Source of the DNA: Escherichia phage vB_EcoM_DE16
Sequence record: OP595145.1
DNA length: 64,000 nt
Direction: 5' to 3' (one strand)
The notes beneath the pieces were generated by a model. That model saw only the letters and a program-made list of their open reading frames with translations, made no database searches and was not told the DNA's origin. Positions within the stretch are counted from its first letter, which is position 1. Each line of letters starts with the position of its first letter. Position numbers and translations under genes: made by a program. This document shows, piece after piece, positions 1 through 59,177 of the stretch.

Positions 1-8
1 GATTATAC

Positions 9-31
9 AAGGGGCGCACTAAGCGCCCTTT
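9..31 (+). terminator. Rho-independent terminator-like hairpin (GGGGCGC-ACTAA-GCGCCC + T run)
   Basis: GC-rich inverted repeat followed by TTT; near-identical copy at 574-602. Confidence 0.55.
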
Positions 32-140
32 AACGTAAAGAAATGTAAATAATGCGCTATCCCCTATTGACAGGGGATCGGCGTTATATTATATTTAACT
101 CACTGGCAGCAAACAACGAAACGAAACAAAGGATAACACT

Positions 141-560
141 ATGAACATTAAATCAAATAATCCAGCTTACTCCTTCGATAACGCTTTTTGTCACGGTAGC
201 GCCGCCAAAGGCTTCGAAATCGATGGTAAATTGGTTATTGTGAACGTTGACGGGGAAGAGGTTGCAGTATATCCGGTAAACGATGTTAAAAGCCGTCTAC
301 AGTGCCGCATGGATGTTACCGCATATCAGCTTGATCCGATCCGTGTAGTTGCCCTAGTATTAGAGGAAGAGATCAAAGCAATGCATCACAGTAATAAGTT
401 TATTGGTGACGCGCAGGATAATATGAACGTTTGCCGCCATAAAGTTAATGAAGCATTGAAAGAATACGGTTTTAAGGATCTGATGATCAAACGTGATGAA
501 AAATTCCGCTTTCGTAATGACCTGGCGAACCGGATCTACTCAATCTATGAAGCTTTATAA
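141..560 (+). CDS. hypothetical protein (139 aa)
   Basis: ATG ORF bracketed by two copies of the same terminator hairpin; no recognisable motif. Confidence 0.55.
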   Translation: MNIKSNNPAYSFDNAFCHGSAAKGFEIDGKLVIVNVDGEEVAVYPVNDVKSRLQCRMDVTAYQLDPIRVVALVLEEEIKAMHHSNKFIGDAQDNMNVCRHKVNEALKEYGFKDLMIKRDEKFRFRNDLANRIYSIYEAL

Positions 561-573
561 TCAACAACAAAAT

Positions 574-602
574 AAGGGGCGCACCAAGCGCCCTTTCTTT
601 TT
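574..602 (+). terminator. Rho-independent terminator (GGGGCGC-ACCAA-GCGCCC-TTTCTTTTT)
   Basis: stem-loop plus T tract immediately after stop of 141-560 ORF. Confidence 0.65.
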
Positions 603-1221
603 GCCCGAACAATGTTGATAGCTTTCGCCTATGAAAAACCGACACAGAACAAAACTGAATAAATCGCGGTATCGAGCTAATCAACCAGCAAACGAATAAC
701 CATACATCCCAGGGCAACAGGCTGTTAGAGGGCTATTTAGAGCGGTTAAAATCGATCAACAACCAACAACAAACCATCAAAAACACCCTTTTACCTCCTT
801 TCTAGTGCAATGATAACCATTATCATCTACCCATGATTATCTATGCAATATAAGCGCATAACTATAATGTTGATAATAGTTCGCAACAACTAACCAACAA
901 ACAACATAAAACAATAAGCAAACTAATCATAATCAAAGAAATAATAGCAAGATGATTGATAACGACAAACAATCAAACCATGATGAATACTAAGCAAAAT
1001 AACAATAACACGACAAAACAACCAACTAACGAACAATAACAAACGAAACCATTAAAATAATAACTATTAGCAAAATAGTACCTGAATGAAATCATTACAA
1101 AACGAATCATTCACAGAGTCATCATTAGCACGCTATGCCGGACACATAGCGAGCTAATAATAAGCCAACTACACCCCAACAATCATAACCATCGGTGACG
1201 GTTATTTCTTGTTATTGCGTA

Positions 1222-1240
1222 GCTTGCAATAATTGCAAGC
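1222..1240. repeat. perfect palindrome GCTTGCAAT-A-ATTGCAAGC
   Basis: 9-bp arms read directly in non-coding region. Confidence 0.8.
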
Positions 1241-1285
1241 GTAATGACGCTTACACTTATTGCGCTGGCTTATTATTAGCATTAT

Positions 1286-1344
1286 ATGTAATTACCAAGA
1301 TCATAACATTAGCGCAATAACAATAATCATTGTGGTAATTACAT
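1286..1344. repeat. 12-bp inverted repeat ATGTAATTACCA / TGGTAATTACAT separated by ~35 bp
   Basis: exact reverse complements at 1286-1297 and 1333-1344. Confidence 0.8.
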
Positions 1345-2103
1345 AAGGAAACAATTAGCATGGCAATAATTATTGGGGGCGAAATGTTACCGCCACGGGC
1401 GGGAATGTTGAGCACTAAGAAAAGAGATAAACCTTAATCATGGGGGCGTAAATATCCGAGGATTGCCAACGGCGATCCGGCAGGATGTTGAGCAAGTTCT
1501 CTTAAACGTAAATAAAATCAGAAAATTCTTGATTTATTTTGGCTTTTATGTTAATAAACGTTTAAATAATAATCATTCTCATATAAATAATAGTCTGCTT
1601 GTCATGAGCGGGATTAGTTGACAGTGTTCCGTCATATGATGAGGTTGCCAAACCATTGATAAATAAGCGTTTGTGTGATTTATAATCAAGTGGCCCACCT
1701 TGTCGCTATGTTGGCATGAGCCTTGCATAAGTCATTGAATACGAATGATAATTATTCTCATTCGCATGATATTTGGGAATTGTCGCTGCGTGGACCCGAC
1801 GGCCCGAAAATTCGCGTTAAGCACTTCTTACGTATGCGCCATGATTTTTGCCATATCATATTGATTCTATTGGATATTCTTGCCATGATTGCCATGAAAC
1901 AGGGTGTCCCGAAATAATCTCTCCCCGTAGATATTTTGGGTTACTTTTTATACAAGAGTGGGGTGTCAAAAATAATCGGTATATATAGGATAATTGATAG
2001 GAATCCCCTATGATAATTCGATTGTAATTCCCTGAGATTGATCGTATGATGTTGGTGATTGATGATTGCCATGAAAGATGGCTAACGATGAGAGGAGATT
2101 ATC

Positions 2104-2478
2104 ATGCAAGAGAGTAAAAATATTCCGTTGAGTAGTGCAACATTGCTTCGCTTCTATAAAGCATGGATTGCCAACTATCCTGCAATGAATCGCACAACGA
2201 GTGGCTTATGTGGTTGTCTGGTAGATTATGTAGATGATTTTGTTGGTGAGACAACTAGAGAAGAAGATAGAAGATGGCGGGATAGTTTGTTAGACCGTTT
2301 GAAATATGAAATGAGGAAACAATTTACATGTGCAGGGCTGGACTACAATCTTCCGTTCAATGCAGATTGCATGGATTACCTTTCAGAGTGTATAAACTTG
2401 GCGTGTCATACCAACACGTTACGTCTTCAATGGGTGAAAGATCGCATCGAAGATGTAAATAATGCTTGCATTGAATAA
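2104..2478 (+). CDS. hypothetical protein, member 1 of six-copy paralogous family (FY..W..GAP..PF..GLC...PF...R..WVKDR)
   Basis: ORF 124 aa, SD GAGAGGAG upstream; shares motif set with 6746, 9976, 10741, 13579, 14883 genes. Confidence 0.7.
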   Translation: MQESKNIPLSSATLLRFYKAWIANYPAMNRTTSGLCGCLVDYVDDFVGETTREEDRRWRDSLLDRLKYEMRKQFTCAGLDYNLPFNADCMDYLSECINLACHTNTLRLQWVKDRIEDVNNACIE

Positions 2479-2537
2479 AAATGTCTGTATAGTGGTTTGC
2501 ATACCGCGCATAACAGATAGCCAATGAGGAGATTGAA

Positions 2538-2747
2538 ATGTCAAATATGAAAACTGTATCCTTGTATTTAGCTAACACTGATCGTGTGCACACCCTTGCT
2601 AATGCAAGTCGTGTACTCGTGCAGTTCCGAAACTTCGCACCGTCCGTTGTGACAGGCAGTGAAACGTGTGTGATCGATTTCATCAATGAATATTTCCACG
2701 GGAATCCTGTTGCTCGTCACTTCGTGGAGAATATGAAAGATGCATAA
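2538..2747 (+). CDS. hypothetical protein (69 aa)
   Basis: ORF with SD TGAGGAG upstream. Confidence 0.5.
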   Translation: MSNMKTVSLYLANTDRVHTLANASRVLVQFRNFAPSVVTGSETCVIDFINEYFHGNPVARHFVENMKDA

Positions 2748-2970
2748 CATGAAACGTATGAAAATTCGTATTGAGAATGATGGTGGTTATAAAGGATTGG
2801 CACATGCAAAATTTCCACTTGTGTTGGAAGCTACAGTGGAATACAGTGGGCTTGCTCATGTGCGATTCTCGAAGATGATGGAAGTGCAGGAGTGGTTTTG
2901 GGACGAGATAGATGCACGAGAAGGGGAAGATTATGTTTTCTTTCCTCACGAATATGAAATCGTTTATTAA
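2740..2970 (+). CDS. hypothetical protein (76 aa)
   Basis: ORF co-directional, start overlaps previous stop. Confidence 0.45.
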   Translation: MHNMKRMKIRIENDGGYKGLAHAKFPLVLEATVEYSGLAHVRFSKMMEVQEWFWDEIDAREGEDYVFFPHEYEIVY

Positions 2971-2973
2971 AGG

Positions 2974-3222
2974 TTGTGTGCAATGATCACACCACAACAG
3001 AATGAAGCAGCAATGGATCTTCTTGATAGTTTGTATTTCGATAACTGGTACTCTGAATGTGAATGGATGAATATGCAAACTCTGAAAGAGAAGACAGAAG
3101 CGTTGATTACAGTAGATCAATTTCTTGCAGAGACGGAAAGAATGAATTATGATATGGCATCTCGCGCACGACGCGTTTCCATTTTCAATAAAATGTTAGC
3201 ATTATGGGGAGGTAGAAAATGA
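2974..3222 (+). CDS. hypothetical protein (82 aa)
   Basis: ORF, co-directional early block. Confidence 0.5.
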   Translation: MCAMITPQQNEAAMDLLDSLYFDNWYSECEWMNMQTLKEKTEALITVDQFLAETERMNYDMASRARRVSIFNKMLALWGGRK

Positions 3223-3680
3223 GACAATTCACTATACTGGCAGCTTATGTGCAATGTGTTCACGATTATGTTAGTGCTCATACAGGTGTGCTGGAAGTTA
3301 CCAGTAAAATTGAAGGTAATATGGGTACTGTCTGTGTGCAACATACTTTATCCAATGTGCCGTTTAAAGTGTTCACTGTTGTAGCTGCCGATTACAATCG
3401 TGTAGATGTGCGTTTCTTGGATCATAATTTTCGTAACGCACTAGATAATATCGAAGATTATCTTCCCGTGAAACCTTTGTCATTTCCACCGAGTCGTGCA
3501 AATAATGTAGTGACAAACCTTAATGAAAGGAATGTGGCTATGCACAAAAAAGTCCGTCAACTGAAAACGCTGATGGAAATGCAAGAAGAGATTGAAAAAG
3601 AATTGAAAGAAGATTTTGGTATGCTTCCAAAAGACGCTTTGAAATGGTATGATGAACTAGGAGGAGAAAGTTATGAATAA
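3219..3680 (+). CDS. hypothetical protein (153 aa)
   Basis: ORF with SD GGGAGG upstream, ATGA overlap with previous gene. Confidence 0.6.
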   Translation: MRQFTILAAYVQCVHDYVSAHTGVLEVTSKIEGNMGTVCVQHTLSNVPFKVFTVVAADYNRVDVRFLDHNFRNALDNIEDYLPVKPLSFPPSRANNVVTNLNERNVAMHKKVRQLKTLMEMQEEIEKELKEDFGMLPKDALKWYDELGGESYE

Positions 3681-3867
3681 AGGAACTACTGTATATTTAG
3701 TGACTAAGAACACCCCAGGTTGGAGCCAATGCAGCACTGTCCCTTACAAGATCTGTGCAACATTAGAACTAGCACAACGTGCAGAAGCAGAAGTGGATGC
3801 CATGCAATACAGCTATGGTGAGATCATTCCTTTTACTCTTGAACAAGAAGGAGCACATCATGTTTAA
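3673..3867 (+). CDS. hypothetical protein (64 aa)
   Basis: ORF with SD AGGAGG upstream. Confidence 0.5.
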   Translation: MNKGTTVYLVTKNTPGWSQCSTVPYKICATLELAQRAEAEVDAMQYSYGEIIPFTLEQEGAHHV

Positions 3868-4315
3868 AGTAGGGTTTACTTATAAATTCAAAAGCGTTGC
3901 TGACCAAGGAGATATGGCAACACATGACAAAGCAAATATTGCTGTTTGCCAAGCGATTGGAAACGAAGTTTTCAAAGTTATGAATACAGATGATAAGTAT
4001 GGTCATGTTCTTGAGTTTTATATCAATGGCACCCTCTATACAGCAGGTGTTACCCCAGGGTTTAATTCGTATACTTATTTGATTGATAACGAAGAATTTA
4101 AATATTTTGAAGAAGTAAAGGAGGAAACAATGGGTAAAGCAGAACCACAATGGCATGTTGTGATCGTAGGATCAGAGTGTGTAGATGTTTGTTCTAGTTT
4201 TGAAAAAGCTTCTGAAGTCGCTACAAAAGCTAAGAAGGATTATCCGTCAAAGACGGTTGAGATTTACGCTCGTGTTGCAGTAGCAAACGCCACAATCACT
4301 ATTGATAAGGAGTAA
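3860..4315 (+). CDS. hypothetical protein (151 aa)
   Basis: internal ATG at 3860 preceded by GAAGGAG; track ORF 3779 start lacks SD. Confidence 0.6.
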   Translation: MFKVGFTYKFKSVADQGDMATHDKANIAVCQAIGNEVFKVMNTDDKYGHVLEFYINGTLYTAGVTPGFNSYTYLIDNEEFKYFEEVKEETMGKAEPQWHVVIVGSECVDVCSSFEKASEVATKAKKDYPSKTVEIYARVAVANATITIDKE

Positions 4316-4320
4316 AGCCA

Positions 4321-4776
4321 ATGTTCAAAGAAGGTCATGTCTACCGTTTCCAGGATGAAGATTATATGCGACTATATTCTACCTTTGATAACAGTATTGC
4401 TGCTATCATTGGAGAGAATTTTTTCGAGGTGTTGAGCACTGATGCAAATGGTAATATCTTGTCAATTGTTGTGATAGGGAGAGACGGTATTATCACTGCT
4501 AGTGATGGGGATCGTTACATAATCAATTCTGCTCATATAGATTATTTTGTTGACGGTGGTATTCGTGGTGGTCGTGGAAAACCCCAAGAAGAACCTGTTG
4601 ATACAACAAAAGAAGAGTGGTATGTTGTAATGACTGATGATACCTGTATTTCTGGATTTGAAAGTTACGAAGAAGCTTTGAAAGAAGCAGCAGAGCATAA
4701 AATGGCTAATCCTACAGAAGAGGTTGAAGTTTATAAACGTTTGGTTGTTGCTACCATCGGCGTATCTTTTGTTTAA
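4321..4776 (+). CDS. hypothetical protein (151 aa)
   Basis: ORF with SD TAAGGAG upstream. Confidence 0.6.
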   Translation: MFKEGHVYRFQDEDYMRLYSTFDNSIAAIIGENFFEVLSTDANGNILSIVVIGRDGIITASDGDRYIINSAHIDYFVDGGIRGGRGKPQEEPVDTTKEEWYVVMTDDTCISGFESYEEALKEAAEHKMANPTEEVEVYKRLVVATIGVSFV

Positions 4777-4788
4777 AAGGGGAATGTT

Positions 4789-5226
4789 ATGTTTAAAGTT
4801 AATGCTGTTTACTGTTTCAAAAGTAAAGCTGCCTGTGAAGCTTTCTCTGTGATCTCTGATGAAAATTTCAAAATGGCAGCTTTGATTGAAGGGTCTTGTT
4901 TCCGCGTCGAAGATGTTAGTGAATCAGGGTCTGTTTGCTCATTGACTTTATTGGACAGCGGGGATATTATTGAAGCTGGACAGTATCCGTTCAGGAGTTG
5001 GGAGATATTGTTAGCTCGCGGAGAGCGTAACTTTTTTATGTGCGTGTCTGCGGGGGAAGTTGTGAAAGAAACTAAGGATGTTTCTGTTTACAATTCTGAA
5101 TTTATAAGTTATAGTGAGTATCAACATTTGGAAGGCATTGTTGGTCACTTGTTATCTCTGATTGACATTGAATGTGACTTGCCTGAATCATTGAAAGAAG
5201 AGTTGAAAGCATTAGATCTGCTGTAA
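4789..5226 (+). CDS. hypothetical protein (145 aa)
   Basis: ORF with SD AAAGGGG upstream. Confidence 0.6.
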   Translation: MFKVNAVYCFKSKAACEAFSVISDENFKMAALIEGSCFRVEDVSESGSVCSLTLLDSGDIIEAGQYPFRSWEILLARGERNFFMCVSAGEVVKETKDVSVYNSEFISYSEYQHLEGIVGHLLSLIDIECDLPESLKEELKALDLL

Positions 5227-57065: not shown

Positions 57066-57140
57066 GGCCCTGTAGCTCAATGGGAGAGCTGTCGGCTCAT
57101 AACCGATAGGTAGCTGGATCGAAACCAGCCAGGGCCACCA
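57066..57140 (+). tRNA. tRNA-Met/Ile2 (anticodon CAT)
   Basis: full cloverleaf: acceptor GGCCCTG/CAGGGCC, loop CTCATAA, encoded CCA; resembles lysidine-type Ile tRNA. Confidence 0.8.
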
Positions 57141-57142
57141 AC

Positions 57143-57217
57143 GTCTTTATGGTGTAATGGATAGCACAGGAGTCTTCTAAACTCTTAGTCAAGGTTCGAT
57201 TCCTTGTAAAGACACCA
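57143..57217 (+). tRNA. tRNA-Arg (anticodon TCT)
   Basis: acceptor GTCTTTA/TAAAGAC, anticodon loop CTTCTAA, T-loop TTCGATT, CCA. Confidence 0.8.
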
Positions 57218-57414
57218 GAATATTTTAACATGAATTAGCTCAAGTGATTTGAACCCCACTACTGATCATGGTGGCAGAGAATGAGGCAAGTATGTCAGAC
57301 ATTATAAACAAAGGCCACGGTTATATTAGAAGACATAGACGCTCGAAGAGCACCGTTCGTGGAGAACGGGGGTTGGTGGAGTCACCATTCATGGTAAAAT
57401 GTTTTAAAAAACTA

Positions 57415-57444
57415 TTGACAACAAACATTATTTTATGTTAGATT
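57415..57444 (+). promoter_or_regulatory. promoter AACTATTGACA-N18-TAGATT
   Basis: same conserved -35 context as 56826 and 58570. Confidence 0.45.
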
Positions 57445-57452
57445 ATAAGTAT

Positions 57453-57543
57453 GGAAGGGCAAATCGACGTGGCGACGAAAACGGTCTTGAAAACCGCCGA
57501 GCTTGAAAGAGCCTTGGGAGTTCGACTCTCCCTCCTTCCGCCA
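57453..57543 (+). tRNA. tRNA-Ser (anticodon TGA), type II
   Basis: acceptor GGAAGGG/TCCTTCC, loop CTTGAAA, long variable arm, T-loop TTCGACT, CCA. Confidence 0.7.
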
Positions 57544-57548
57544 GATTA

Positions 57549-57634
57549 GGTAGATTGGTGAAATGGTAGCCACAACAGTTTGCTAAACTGTAGTCGGAAA
57601 CGGCGTGTAGGTTCGAGTCCTACATCTACCGCCA
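57549..57634 (+). tRNA. tRNA-Ser (anticodon GCT), type II
   Basis: acceptor GGTAGAT/ATCTACC, loop TTGCTAA, long variable arm, CCA. Confidence 0.75.
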
Positions 57635-57764
57635 AGTTCTTTTTAATATAGCTTACTTTAATAGAGTAAACTTTCGGCAGATGGCCTCCACCATCTTACC
57701 GATACTTCATAGTTAGTGGTGCGAACACTGGCTATTTTAAAAAGAATTTAAATACTAGCATTTA

Positions 57765-57852
57765 GGTGAGTTAATTCCGTAGGGGTAGCGGGGCAGACTG
57801 TAAATCTGTTATCATTGCGATTCGGGTGGTTCGACTCCATCACTCACCACCA
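57765..57852 (+). tRNA. tRNA-Tyr (anticodon GTA), type II
   Basis: acceptor GGTGAGT/ACTCACC, anticodon arm GCAGA-CTGTAAA-TCTGT, CCA. Confidence 0.75.
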
Positions 57853-57858
57853 AATTAA

Positions 57859-57944
57859 GATGAGTTGGCTGAATGGTTTAAGCGGCGGACTGTTAATCCG
57901 TGTTCGAAAGAACGATATAGGTTCAAATCCTATACTCATCGCCA
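57859..57944 (+). tRNA. tRNA-Asn-like (anticodon GTT) with atypical 15-nt variable arm
   Basis: anticodon arm GCGGA-CTGTTAA-TCCGT matches Asn tRNAs, but GTTC-GAAA-GAAC hairpin inserted in variable region. Confidence 0.5.
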
Positions 57945-57951
57945 GAATTAT

Positions 57952-58028
57952 GGACTTGTAGAGTTAAGGTAAACCCCCAGTCGCCAAGAGGCTTCTGGAA
58001 TTGCAGGTATCGAATCCTGCCGAGTCCC
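57952..58028 (+). other. degenerate tRNA-like element
   Basis: 7-bp acceptor pairing and T-arm GCAGG ... CCTGC with 8-nt loop, but no canonical anticodon arm. Confidence 0.3.
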
Positions 58029-58034
58029 AGCTTT

Positions 58035-58109
58035 GCTCCTATAGTATAATGGCTATTACAACGGTTTTGTAATCCGTGGATCTCTGTTCGATTCAGAGTG
58101 GGAGCACCA
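58035..58109 (+). tRNA. tRNA-Thr (anticodon TGT)
   Basis: acceptor GCTCCTA/TGGGAGC, loop TTTGTAA, T-arm CTCTG-TTCGATT-CAGAG, CCA. Confidence 0.75.
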
Positions 58110-58569
58110 ACATAACAGGTAAGAACATTTAGGCTACTGAGAAATCATCCGAGGCAATCAGACCTATCTTCTGTTAAGTGTTCTTATCGTTGTGAAGAAA
58201 GCAAACTTATTGAATGTAAGCGGACGAAAGACATTCACTAACCTGTAGTAAGGTCGAGCCAAAGCGCGGTAATGAGTTCCGAGGTTAGTATTCACAACAC
58301 AACATTAAGAGCACTGTGATTGATCGTCGTATCCTGTGCACAAGGTCTGCTCGAAAGACAGTGTTCTTAGTATTGTGTTGATCACAAAAAGAGTTACCTG
58401 AAACTTGACCGGAGTAGGGTTGGATGGGGCAAAAGAAGAAGCGGCTCTCCCATCGACAGCAACGAAGAATAATATTTGACTTTGGTTTTGTATTATTTTA
58501 AGTTAGCTTACCGAACGTAGGGCTAGTCACCCAATGGGATACTCGTCACTGTCCCACTCAATAAAACTA

Positions 58570-58599
58570 TTGACAACCAATAGTAAAATGTAGTATAGT
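58570..58599 (+). promoter_or_regulatory. promoter AACTATTGACA-N18-TATAGT
   Basis: perfect -35 and 5/6 -10, just upstream of tRNA-Gly. Confidence 0.55.
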
Positions 58600-58610
58600 A
58601 AAGATGTAGG

Positions 58611-58684
58611 GCGTTCTTGGTGTAGCGGTAGCATTCCGTCCTTCCAAGTCGGCGGCACGAGTTCGATCCTCGTAGAACGCTCCA
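58611..58684 (+). tRNA. tRNA-Gly (anticodon TCC)
   Basis: acceptor GCGTTCT/AGAACGC, loop CTTCCAA, T-arm ACGAG-TTCGATC-CTCGT, CCA. Confidence 0.7.
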
Positions 58685-58782
58685 AATTATTTAATAAAGG
58701 GTTGCCAGAAAACTTTCTCTTTTACTCATGGTTTTCTCCTTCTCTCACACCTCTTCTGGTTGCCCTTCATTAAATGATTTAT

Positions 58783-58858
58783 TGGTTTGTAGTGTAGTCA
58801 GGTAGCACACGACACTTTGACTGTCGTAGGTTTGGTTCAAATCCAGACAGACCAGCCA
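58783..58858 (+). tRNA. tRNA-Gln (anticodon TTG)
   Basis: U1-A72 acceptor TGGTTTG/CAGACCA, anticodon arm CGACA-CTTTGAC-TGTCG, discriminator G, CCA. Confidence 0.8.
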
Positions 58859-58863
58859 TATAA

Positions 58864-58940
58864 CGGAATTTAGCTCAGTTTGGTAGAGTGTACGCTTTGG
58901 GAGCGTATTGTCGCAGGTTCGAATCCTGCAATTCCGACCA
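58864..58940 (+). tRNA. tRNA-Pro (anticodon TGG)
   Basis: acceptor CGGAATT/AATTCCG, anticodon arm TACGC-TTTGGGA-GCGTA, CCA. Confidence 0.8.
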
Positions 58941-58946
58941 ATTAAA

Positions 58947-59020
58947 TGTTTCGTAGTTCAATGGTAGAACCCACGACTGATAATCGTGAGACACAAGTTC
59001 GATTCTTGTCGAAACAACCA
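58947..59020 (+). tRNA. tRNA-Ile (anticodon GAT)
   Basis: acceptor TGTTTCG/CGAAACA, D-stem GTTC/GAAC, anticodon arm CACGA-CTGATAA-TCGTG, CCA. Confidence 0.75.
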
Positions 59021-59022
59021 GT

Positions 59023-59092
59023 TTCCCGTTAGACTTACAGGATAAGAGTTCCACAGCTTATTGTGATGCTGGTTCGAATCCAGCACGGGATA
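59023..59092 (+). other. degenerate tRNA-like element
   Basis: canonical T-arm GCTGG-TTCGAAT-CCAGC and acceptor pairing but no canonical anticodon arm; too short for full cloverleaf. Confidence 0.3.
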
Positions 59093-59098
59093 CCTAAT

Positions 59099-59177
59099 AG
59101 CGGGATAGAGGAGTCTGGTCGTCCTCGCCAGTTTCATATGCTGGAGATCATTGGTTCAAATCCAATTCCCGCCTCCA
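59099..59177 (+). tRNA. tRNA-Met (anticodon CAT), 1-72 mismatch
   Basis: D-stem GAGG/CCTC, anticodon arm CCAGT-TTCATAT-GCTGG, T-arm ATTGG-TTCAAAT-CCAAT, CCA; A1 opposite C72. Confidence 0.65.

Follow-up and report, generated by a model that had tools for sequence, protein, structure and literature searches.

Terminal repeats have been described in several close relatives of the phage considered here. Genomes of the subfamily Stephanstirmvirinae end in direct terminal repeats (DTRs; PMC12695924). The repeat of Schickermooser was reported as 328 bp (PMC6563267) and that of BME3, called with PhageTerm, as 342 bp (PMC12210895), while in the sister genus Justusliebigvirus the GenBank record of phi92 (NC_023693) has an annotated DTR of 343 bp on the left and on the right. 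For LL12, an rV5-like phage, the corresponding non-coding region contains a repeat of 459 bp (PMC6658697). Here we analysed a stretch of 64,000 nucleotides from Escherichia phage vB_EcoM_DE16 (OP595145.1), the whole of which we call the window, and in particular its gene-poor region 603-2100. By sequence similarity the window belongs to Phapecoctavirus, the phAPEC8-like myoviruses of about 150 kb within the same subfamily. We consider it very probable that the region serves a Phapecoctavirus genome as its terminal control region (concatemer junction), with linear, non-permuted DNA bearing a 329-bp DTR. The genome ends of close relatives are already known. The accessible records and papers, among which the phi92 genome paper was not, report the repeat only, and as far as we could find the putative cut-site modules, folded structure and Fur-like boxes set out below are undescribed.

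In T7, promoters and repeats or hairpins stand beside the repeat at the concatemer junction, and to our knowledge the cutting that yields short exact repeats has been worked out only for T7-like podoviruses. According to published models, the T7 repeat is duplicated either from nicks, by displacement of a strand, or by primase-initiated synthesis that passes through a hairpin intermediate (PMC4281155). With the junctions of T7 and T3 the present region would share a short, non-coding, exact repeat that occurs once per junction and is copied before or during packaging, again with promoters and repeats or hairpins alongside. However, there is no sequence relation, the phage is a 150-kb myovirus, a large multi-stem structure rather than a simple inverted repeat stands beside the repeat, and the two putative cut modules are recognisably homologous and in direct orientation.

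The repeat itself is placed as follows.

1491..1819, + strand: predicted direct terminal repeat, 329 bp, located by the exact repeats at the record ends of relatives

Bases 400-2300 match about 140 phage records, the top ones being phAPEC8-like coliphages at 95-97% identity; for the window, the identity to phAPEC8-like phages is given as 95-98%. Seven linear records of relatives end within the region, and the repeats were read at both record ends for four of them (Schickermooser, Mt1B1_P17, WPEC4 and KKP3954; 95-97% identical). Schickermooser has an exact 329-bp repeat at both ends, corresponding to window 1491-1819, and Mt1B1_P17 and WPEC4 have exact 328-bp repeats at both ends that correspond to 1491-1818, so that the left record ends of all three align to window position 1491. 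In KKP3954 an exact 309-bp repeat at both ends corresponds to 1502-1810; this record stops 9 bp short, at 1810, and was apparently trimmed. The remaining six of the seven records, from different laboratories, close on ...CGCGTT(A). Furthermore, the proximal GTTG lies 320-343 bp from the record end in all seven, and the left ends that were read start right after GTTG. Because the exact repeats of the relatives map to 1491-1819, the region would represent, in this phage too, a read-through of the right/left end junction with one copy of the repeat, and 603-1490 would consequently be the non-coding right arm of the genome. The repeat is single copy in the window, and we predict from its relatives that it stands at both ends of the virion DNA of this phage.

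The DTRs of phi92, Schickermooser, Mt1B1_P17, WPEC4 and BME3 are homologous to the one predicted here: they share its position after the same last gene and its GTTG/AGC and CGCGTTA/AGCA boundaries (the slash marking the presumed cut), they contain Fur-like boxes, and a folded element stands 200-300 bp to their left. They differ in that the repeat spans 342-343 bp in phi92-like phages against 329 bp here, and that the window, like ECO340P1, has a second, distal left-site module; the right arm outside the folded element cannot be aligned between genera. A preliminary description of this DNA, made from the sequence alone, had offered a genome-end structure or a packaging signal among several candidate roles and had proposed a comparison with related phages. 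That comparison places genome ends in the homologous region of the relatives, phi92 with its annotated DTRs included. It also lends support, again by way of the relatives, to the packaging signal, given that both boundaries of the repeat share a conserved cut motif.

The candidate cut sites are these.

1374..1414, + strand: putative distal (extra) left cut-site module, with G-box TGGGGGCGAAA at 1374-1384, hairpin CCGCC-acg-GGCGG at 1390-1402 and motif GTTG/AGCA at 1407-1414
1441..1494, + strand: putative proximal left cut-site module, with G-box TGGGGGCGTAA at 1441-1451, hairpin GGATTGCC-aac-GGCGATCC at 1460-1478 and motif GTTG/AGCA at 1487-1494
1801..1823, + strand: putative right cut site GGCCCGAAAATTCGCGTTA/AGCA, from motif conservation and the record ends of relatives

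A cut motif, GTTR/AGCA, is common to both boundaries of the repeat. In the window the left boundary reads GATGTTG/AGCAAG (1490/1491) and the right one CGCGTTA/AGCACT (1819/1820); their counterparts in phi92 are TTTGTTG/AGCCTA and CGCGTTA/AGCACC. We thus predict the left genome end at 1490/1491 and the right genome end at 1819/1820. A GTTR/AGC pair is found at both boundaries, to the right of the folded element, in 11 lineages, its two motifs standing 329-412 bp apart (in most lineages about 330-353). The alignment of the repeats suggests, for the two pairs with the greatest distance, that the true left site is a degenerate copy closer to the right site. Within the 64-kb window GTTRAGCA occurs five times on the + strand, three of them in the region, and not once on the minus strand. 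The two sites are conserved in different ways. The right one is kept as a sequence, GAAAAT(T)CGCGTTA/AGCA being invariant in the 11 lineages, and the left one as a module made up of a G-box (TGGGGGCGAAA), a GC-rich hairpin, 4-5 nt and then GTTG/AGC; among the 11 lineages the sequence of the hairpin varies while its position, 4-5 nt before GTTG/AGC, is kept.

The duplicated left module also accounts for a direct repeat that the preliminary description had picked out. The repeat ATGTTGAGCA, at 1405 and 1485, was correctly noticed and belongs to the two copies of the module (1374-1414 and 1441-1494), as does the GAATGTTGAGCA / GGATGTTGAGCA pair; a third copy of the motif, at 1816-1823, had been overlooked. 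Left modules vary from one to three among close relatives (including L006, L021, L022 and L035), 58-80 bp apart. A single module is found in Schickermooser and in KKP3954, from both of which window 1415-1478 is missing, and WPEC4 has two, with its repeat beginning at the proximal one.

The repeat also contains candidate regulatory sites, and one further site lies to its left.

806..830, no strand assigned: Fur-box-like site in the spacer, TGCAATGATAACCATTATC with overlapping matches, 15/19 to GATAATGATAATCATTATC
1529..1580, + strand: promoter-like site and Fur-box-like operator, with TTGATT at 1529-1534, a 17-nt spacer, TAATAA at 1552-1557 and the operator at 1562-1580
1723..1765, + strand: Fur-box-like array AATGATAATTATTCTCATTCGC, at about 55-78 bp from the right end, with the conserved block TAAGTCATTGAAT ahead of it

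A repeat family, AATGATAAYCATTMTCAT, matches the Escherichia coli Fur-box consensus GATAATGATAATCATTATC; the preliminary description had missed the likeness. In the window the matches reach 14-15/19 (at 806, 1562 and 1741/1747), and 9 of the 13 matches with at most five mismatches in the whole 64 kb fall within 806-1765. In relatives, copies with two to three mismatches (up to 17/19) occupy equivalent positions, some 71-77 bp inward from either end of the repeat, with a further one in the spacer; examples within the set are L014 (phi92):3005 and 3200, L018:2128 and L035:1970. Equivalents of the spacer box, with three mismatches each, stand at L014:2124 in phi92, at L021:2201 in KP2025 and at L035:905. 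At the first operator the -35-like CTTGATTT is nearly invariant in nine lineages, followed 17 nt on by a hexamer beginning with TA and then by the box, about 71 bp from the left end (in phi92 GTAAATGATAATCATTATC, with two mismatches); in the window the promoter at 1529-1557 was assigned by reading the sequence and not as a scan hit. Before the right end, the block TAAGTCATTGAAT is kept in 9/9 aligned lineages, and the array has equivalents with two mismatches each in phiWec179 (GATAATGATAATTATTCTC) and L035 (GATAATGATAATCATTCGC). The alignment of the repeat in nine lineages shows conserved islands at the cut sites, at CTTGATTT with its hexamer and box, in a central block, and at the box array before the right end. 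In two lineages of Klebsiella phages (KP2025, L021, and L025) the first box is replaced by CTGT-N8-ACAG, which has the layout of a LexA box; in KP2025 this site, CCACTGTTCACTTATACAGTGG, follows the conserved TTGATT block about 70 nt to the right of the left cut motif at 2908. Such a replacement suggests that operators for different host repressors have been swapped. Taken as a whole, the boxes and the conserved islands point to host repressors that would act on promoters within the repeat. As in operators of E. coli Fur, arrays of hexamers stand beside -35/-10-like elements, with a likeness of 14-15/19 in the window and 17/19 in relatives; in contrast to them, the candidate boxes lie in the terminal repeat of a virulent phage, mirrored about 70 bp from both DNA ends. 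By eye, the terminal region of rV5 also has Fur-like boxes.

Several observations weigh against reading the region as a concatemer junction. The ends of this phage are transferred from relatives, the closest of which is 97-98% identical (over 6 kb), with none identical among the records searched. Some records end elsewhere, ESCO5 at about 1743 and REC at about 1564, and ESCO13 starts at about 638; we have assumed these to be arbitrary or untrimmed cuts. In phi92 and L023 no obvious hairpin precedes the left cut. Promoter-like matches in the region are no commoner than in shuffles (15 against 11.5 +/- 3.1), and the folded element has no convincing conserved sigma-70 promoter or terminator flanking it on the minus strand.

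That element and its neighbours in the right arm are as follows.

1118..1286, minus strand: conserved folded element, about 170 nt, from covariation, fold energy and strand asymmetry
1285..1345, no strand assigned: inverted repeat forming a variable hairpin, arms 1285-1304 and 1326-1345, 85% complementary, just to the right of the folded element
574..602, + strand: intrinsic terminator, stem 574-596 followed by a T run, nine-pair stem with six G-C pairs, closing the last right-end gene (141-560)

The element consists of a 15-bp closing stem (1153-1167 with 1267-1281) around two arms, and of a separate hairpin at 1131-1151. We aligned 22 distinct sequences from GenBank, IMG/VR and metagenomes, the scans of the latter two having given few extra loci; L028, L031 and L037, considered as further loci, turned out to be unrelated chance matches to the palindrome. 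Only about 1121-1282 (some 125-160 nt, depending on the lineage) is shared between the region and the phi92-like and Klebsiella phages, and nothing else in the right arm can be aligned with them. Of 1342 alignment cells, 94.3% are paired on the minus strand, a share that drops to 25-52% once the partners are slid by one to three columns. Compensatory changes on both sides are found in 17 of the 61 pairs (110 cells), and the observed values were reached by none of 500 shuffles, in a test whose structure was derived from the minus-strand fold of the window itself. One such stem reads GCAATAA with TTATTGC in the window, GCAATGA with TCATTGC in ECO340P1 and GCAACAA with TTGTTGC in phi92. Strand asymmetry is pronounced: the minus strand has 128 G·U cells and 2 A·C cells, the latter being those that would form G·U on the plus strand. 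The minimum free energy is -77.2 kcal/mol (z -8.5) for the minus strand and -56.5 kcal/mol (z -6.4) for the plus strand. These patterns suggest that the element folds or acts as a single strand of minus polarity only. Recalculated with energy parameters for DNA, the fold is unchanged (-45.4 kcal/mol, z -8.9), so that the data fit RNA and single-stranded DNA alike.

The perfect palindrome at 1222-1240 (GCTTGCAATAATTGCAAGC), seen as such in the preliminary description, lies inside the element and is invariant in 22/22 aligned homologues; it could form a hairpin of its own or join the covarying arm, and its membership in a larger covarying structure had been missed. The 12-bp inverted repeat of the same description consists of exact 12-mers inside the arms of the variable hairpin at 1285-1345, at whose place, by eye only, other lineages have unrelated small hairpins. 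With the alignment made into a covariance model, weak matches of 20-28 bits turned up in rV5-like phages; their strand agrees with that of the element, as does their position downstream of the same gene. They have a similar plan, with an 18-bp A/U-rich closing stem and then a GC hairpin, in sequences too alike for covariation. On this sequence comparison the element is conserved across the Stephanstirmvirinae and is probably present in rV5-like phages also. In every lineage it lies about 200-300 bp to the left of the repeat, and it is most likely a cis-acting part of the end-processing or replication machinery.

Two other accounts of the element deserve consideration, both compatible with the predicted terminal repeat. 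Under the first, 1118-1286 is the gene of a free-standing, trans-acting non-coding RNA, transcribed leftward and antisense to the flanking genes, with its nearness to the genome end incidental. The covariation in 17/61 pairs and the invariant G·U pairs confined to the minus strand speak for an RNA, as does its fold energy; phi92 and KP2025 have hairpin insertions specific to their lineages at one point in the structure, a trait of many RNA families, and the terminator at 574-602, which scores on the minus strand too (593-577), could end a leftward transcript. However, a scan of the upstream minus strand in 12 lineages gave no sigma-70 promoter hit at a conserved position, and there is no terminator directly downstream. 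Judged by titles and abstracts, the literature yielded no transcriptome study of this genus. Rfam (15) gave no family match over 1-5000 or in a lax search of 1090-1360, the best scores being 17-22 bits against thresholds of 39-169 (E >=0.2). The equal favour of the same structure under DNA parameters counts against an RNA as well, and its fixed distance to the repeat in every lineage, rV5-like phages included, argues for a role in cis. A trans-acting RNA is possible in our view, though unlikely.

Under the second account the region is a replication origin, with the G-poor spacer at 603-1117 as unwinding zone and the element as a single-strand initiation (ssi) signal for primase or a primosome, from which primers would be extended rightward through the repeat, a possible route to its duplication. 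Primosome assembly sites of this kind in plasmids and small phages are strand-specific stem-loops in non-coding DNA that are active only as one single strand. By analogy the folded element resembles them in being strand-specific, stem-looped and non-coding, and differs in its larger size, about 170 nt with five helices; we know of no sequence similarity between the two. The strand-specific structure folds well as DNA, and its orientation would fit, since a primer laid on the minus-strand template would be extended toward and across 1491-1819. Furthermore, the spacer is unstructured and low in GC (26-36%), and ATTAGC is enriched in the region, with seven copies against 0.6 expected and no regular array. 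The T7 models cited above, with their primase-initiated synthesis and hairpin intermediate (PMC4281155), would offer a precedent. On the other hand, the region has no DnaA box TTATNCACA, the genus has no iteron array like the GTRAACAG repeats of rV5, and G·T wobbles kept unchanged between genera would be less usual in a DNA structure than in RNA. With evidence on either side, we regard an origin, which the preliminary description had also listed, as doubtful. The equivalent place in rV5 (L038:3421-6024) is a 2.6-kb unannotated stretch with GTRAACAG and GTGTCA arrays that are absent from Phapecoctavirus.

Returning to the concatemer junction, we put forward the following sequence of events. During packaging, terminase would cut replicated DNA at two homologous sites in direct orientation: on the left at GTTG/AGCA (1490/1491), after the G-box and hairpin, and on the right at GAAAATTCGCGTTA/AGCA (1819/1820). 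With a single repeat per junction, a duplication is needed before both ends can carry it, as in phages of the T7 type. The repeat might be copied during processing, as proposed for T7 with its strand displacement or its primase-initiated synthesis through a hairpin intermediate (PMC4281155). The folded element would act either as a leftward-transcribed RNA or as single-stranded DNA that primes rightward synthesis across the repeat; strand and position fit a primer made on the element and extended rightward through the repeat, although this step is no more than an inference. Once infection has begun, the early genes from 2104 onward would be expressed from promoters within the left copy of the repeat and immediately behind it, and the host-type promoter elements and Fur-like operators within the repeat would control this rightward transcription. 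As a wider proposal, which we advance tentatively and with less than even confidence, the element may represent a new structured RNA or single-stranded DNA family of the Stephanstirmvirinae, and probably of the Vequintavirinae, required in cis for end processing or replication, for instance in priming duplication of the repeat; the repeat itself would be wired to host stress regulators, Fur in the coliphages and a LexA-like repressor in some Klebsiella phages.

The segments on either side of these elements are as follows.

603..1117, no strand assigned: non-coding spacer of the right arm, + strand G-depleted and A/C-rich, with almost no secondary structure
1820..2103, + strand: unique leader that follows the left copy of the repeat and runs up to the first early gene (ATG 2104), with TTGCCATGA repeats at 1880-1897 in tandem (9-nt) and at 2064-2076

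Over 450 nt of the spacer the composition is A 46%, C 22%, G 11% and T 21%, compared with 19% G in the rest of the window. The A/C-rich, G-poor top strand had been described for 700-1200, and we measured there a GC skew of -0.24 to -0.36 and an AT skew of +0.2 to +0.52. G depletion (6-14% G) is found in 11/11 lineages, including rV5-like phages, in sequence that cannot be aligned between genera. The + strand folds at -22.7 kcal/mol for 278 nt, and the minus strand folds no better than shuffles (z +1.0). The candidate explanations are an insulator that loads Rho, an unwinding zone and a mutational skew. In the first of these, 603-1117 is a Rho-dependent termination zone, where RNA reading through the terminator at 574-602 would load Rho and so protect the element and cut sites from transcription. 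The excess of C over G (22% against 11%) in an almost unstructured tract that starts right after an intrinsic terminator would suit such a role, as would the conservation in all lineages of composition and not of sequence. Nevertheless, 500 nt is far longer than a Rho loading site requires, the tract is mainly A-rich in Phapecoctavirus, and mutation could have produced the skew where no coding constraint acts; an insulator of this sort thus strikes us as rather dubious. Highly improbable, finally, is the injection-control signal that the preliminary description had also listed, a first-step-transfer stop signal like that of T5: a position near the genome end with repeats and hairpins is all that recommends it, and while T5 too has a direct repeat at both ends of a linear genome, control of the T5 type goes with repeats of about 10 kb carrying pre-early genes (10-11 kb; 10,219 bp), against 329 gene-free bp here, and no search returned any homology or similarity to T5-like phages.

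In the leader, the best promoter-like site is TTGCCA-18-AATAAT at 1889-1918 (10/12), followed by TTGTAA-17-TATGAT at 2022-2050; here too such sites are not commoner than in shuffles. The motif TTGCCATG or its complement occurs four times in the region (1879-1897, 2064-2076, 1359-1366) and once in the other 62 kb, and it overlaps the -35-like TTGCCA of the 1889-1918 site. The 13-bp direct repeat of the preliminary description, ATGATTGCCATGAAA (GATTGCCATGAAA), is present at 1885 and 2062, and indeed every repeat and feature that it listed was found where it had been placed. Short repeats by themselves are weak evidence, and the comparison with relatives places most of them inside conserved elements. 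Tandem repeats amount to just four weak, short arrays, and a tandem duplication behind the CAACAA-type repeats with 128-bp spacing was not supported. The terminator at 574-602, also noted beforehand, was recovered with its stem (574-596) and T run, and the records of phAPEC8 and Schickermooser carry annotated ARNold terminators at the equivalent position.

No credible gene lies within 603-2100, as had been stated from the outset. Between 603 and 2103 there is no open reading frame (ORF) longer than 76 aa, and a PHROG search with nine of the longest ORFs gave no significant match, the sole hit having E = 0.079. Most relatives have no annotation in the homologous region; a few records annotate short ORFs there, of about 30-107 aa on either strand. 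Across lineages, the similarity is spread over several frames on both strands without frame-specific conservation, which identifies the conservation as non-coding; small genes were rejected as the content of the region on these grounds. A 17-codon ORF on the minus strand at about 733-800 has a GTG start (MFLMVCCWLLIDFNRSK) and a perfect Shine-Dalgarno sequence, AAGGAGGT, at ideal spacing. An equivalent Shine-Dalgarno sequence is missing in phiWec179 and in most other lineages checked, with only unrelated GGGAGG matches at its place in phi92 and L030; lacking a counterpart in these lineages, the ORF is probably not a gene.

At the start of the early genes, phAPEC8, Schickermooser and others have an extra first gene of 345 nt (phAPEC8_0018; L001:7022-7366, L003:614-958) between the leader and what comes first in the window after the leader; the window lacks about 306 bp at that place (2100-2140). 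The 'PHIRE promoters' of phAPEC8 (L001:556-575, 937-956, 1787-1806 and 3202-3221) are GC-rich, hairpin-forming 20-mers (GTAGGGCGGCAATGGTGCCG), at least one of them directly downstream of an annotated sigma-70-like promoter. They may be RNA structures and not promoters, and are absent from the window. Over the region, identity to these coliphages is 82-97% for records labelled as Campylobacter, Pseudomonas and Acinetobacter phages, with the minimum of about 82% in Pseudomonas phage PsgM04F; such records may bear a mistaken host label or stem from carry-over. The ARAGORN tRNAs of the window are confined to 57-59 kb, as a cluster of ten tRNA genes on the + strand (57066-59177).

True genome ends fix the assembly, orientation and engineering of these coliphages, which are widely used in therapy and typing and of which many deposited records are cut at arbitrary points. 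The twin cut-site modules offer a concrete target for asking how the terminase of a large myovirus makes short exact repeats. Additionally, a new family of cis-acting RNA or DNA at the ends of phage genomes has a clear candidate in the folded element. If functional, the Fur-type operators in the repeat would tie the earliest phage transcription to the iron status of the host, and if the wiring to Fur and LexA-like repressors is true, iron or DNA-damage status would bear on early transcription or on the processing of the ends.

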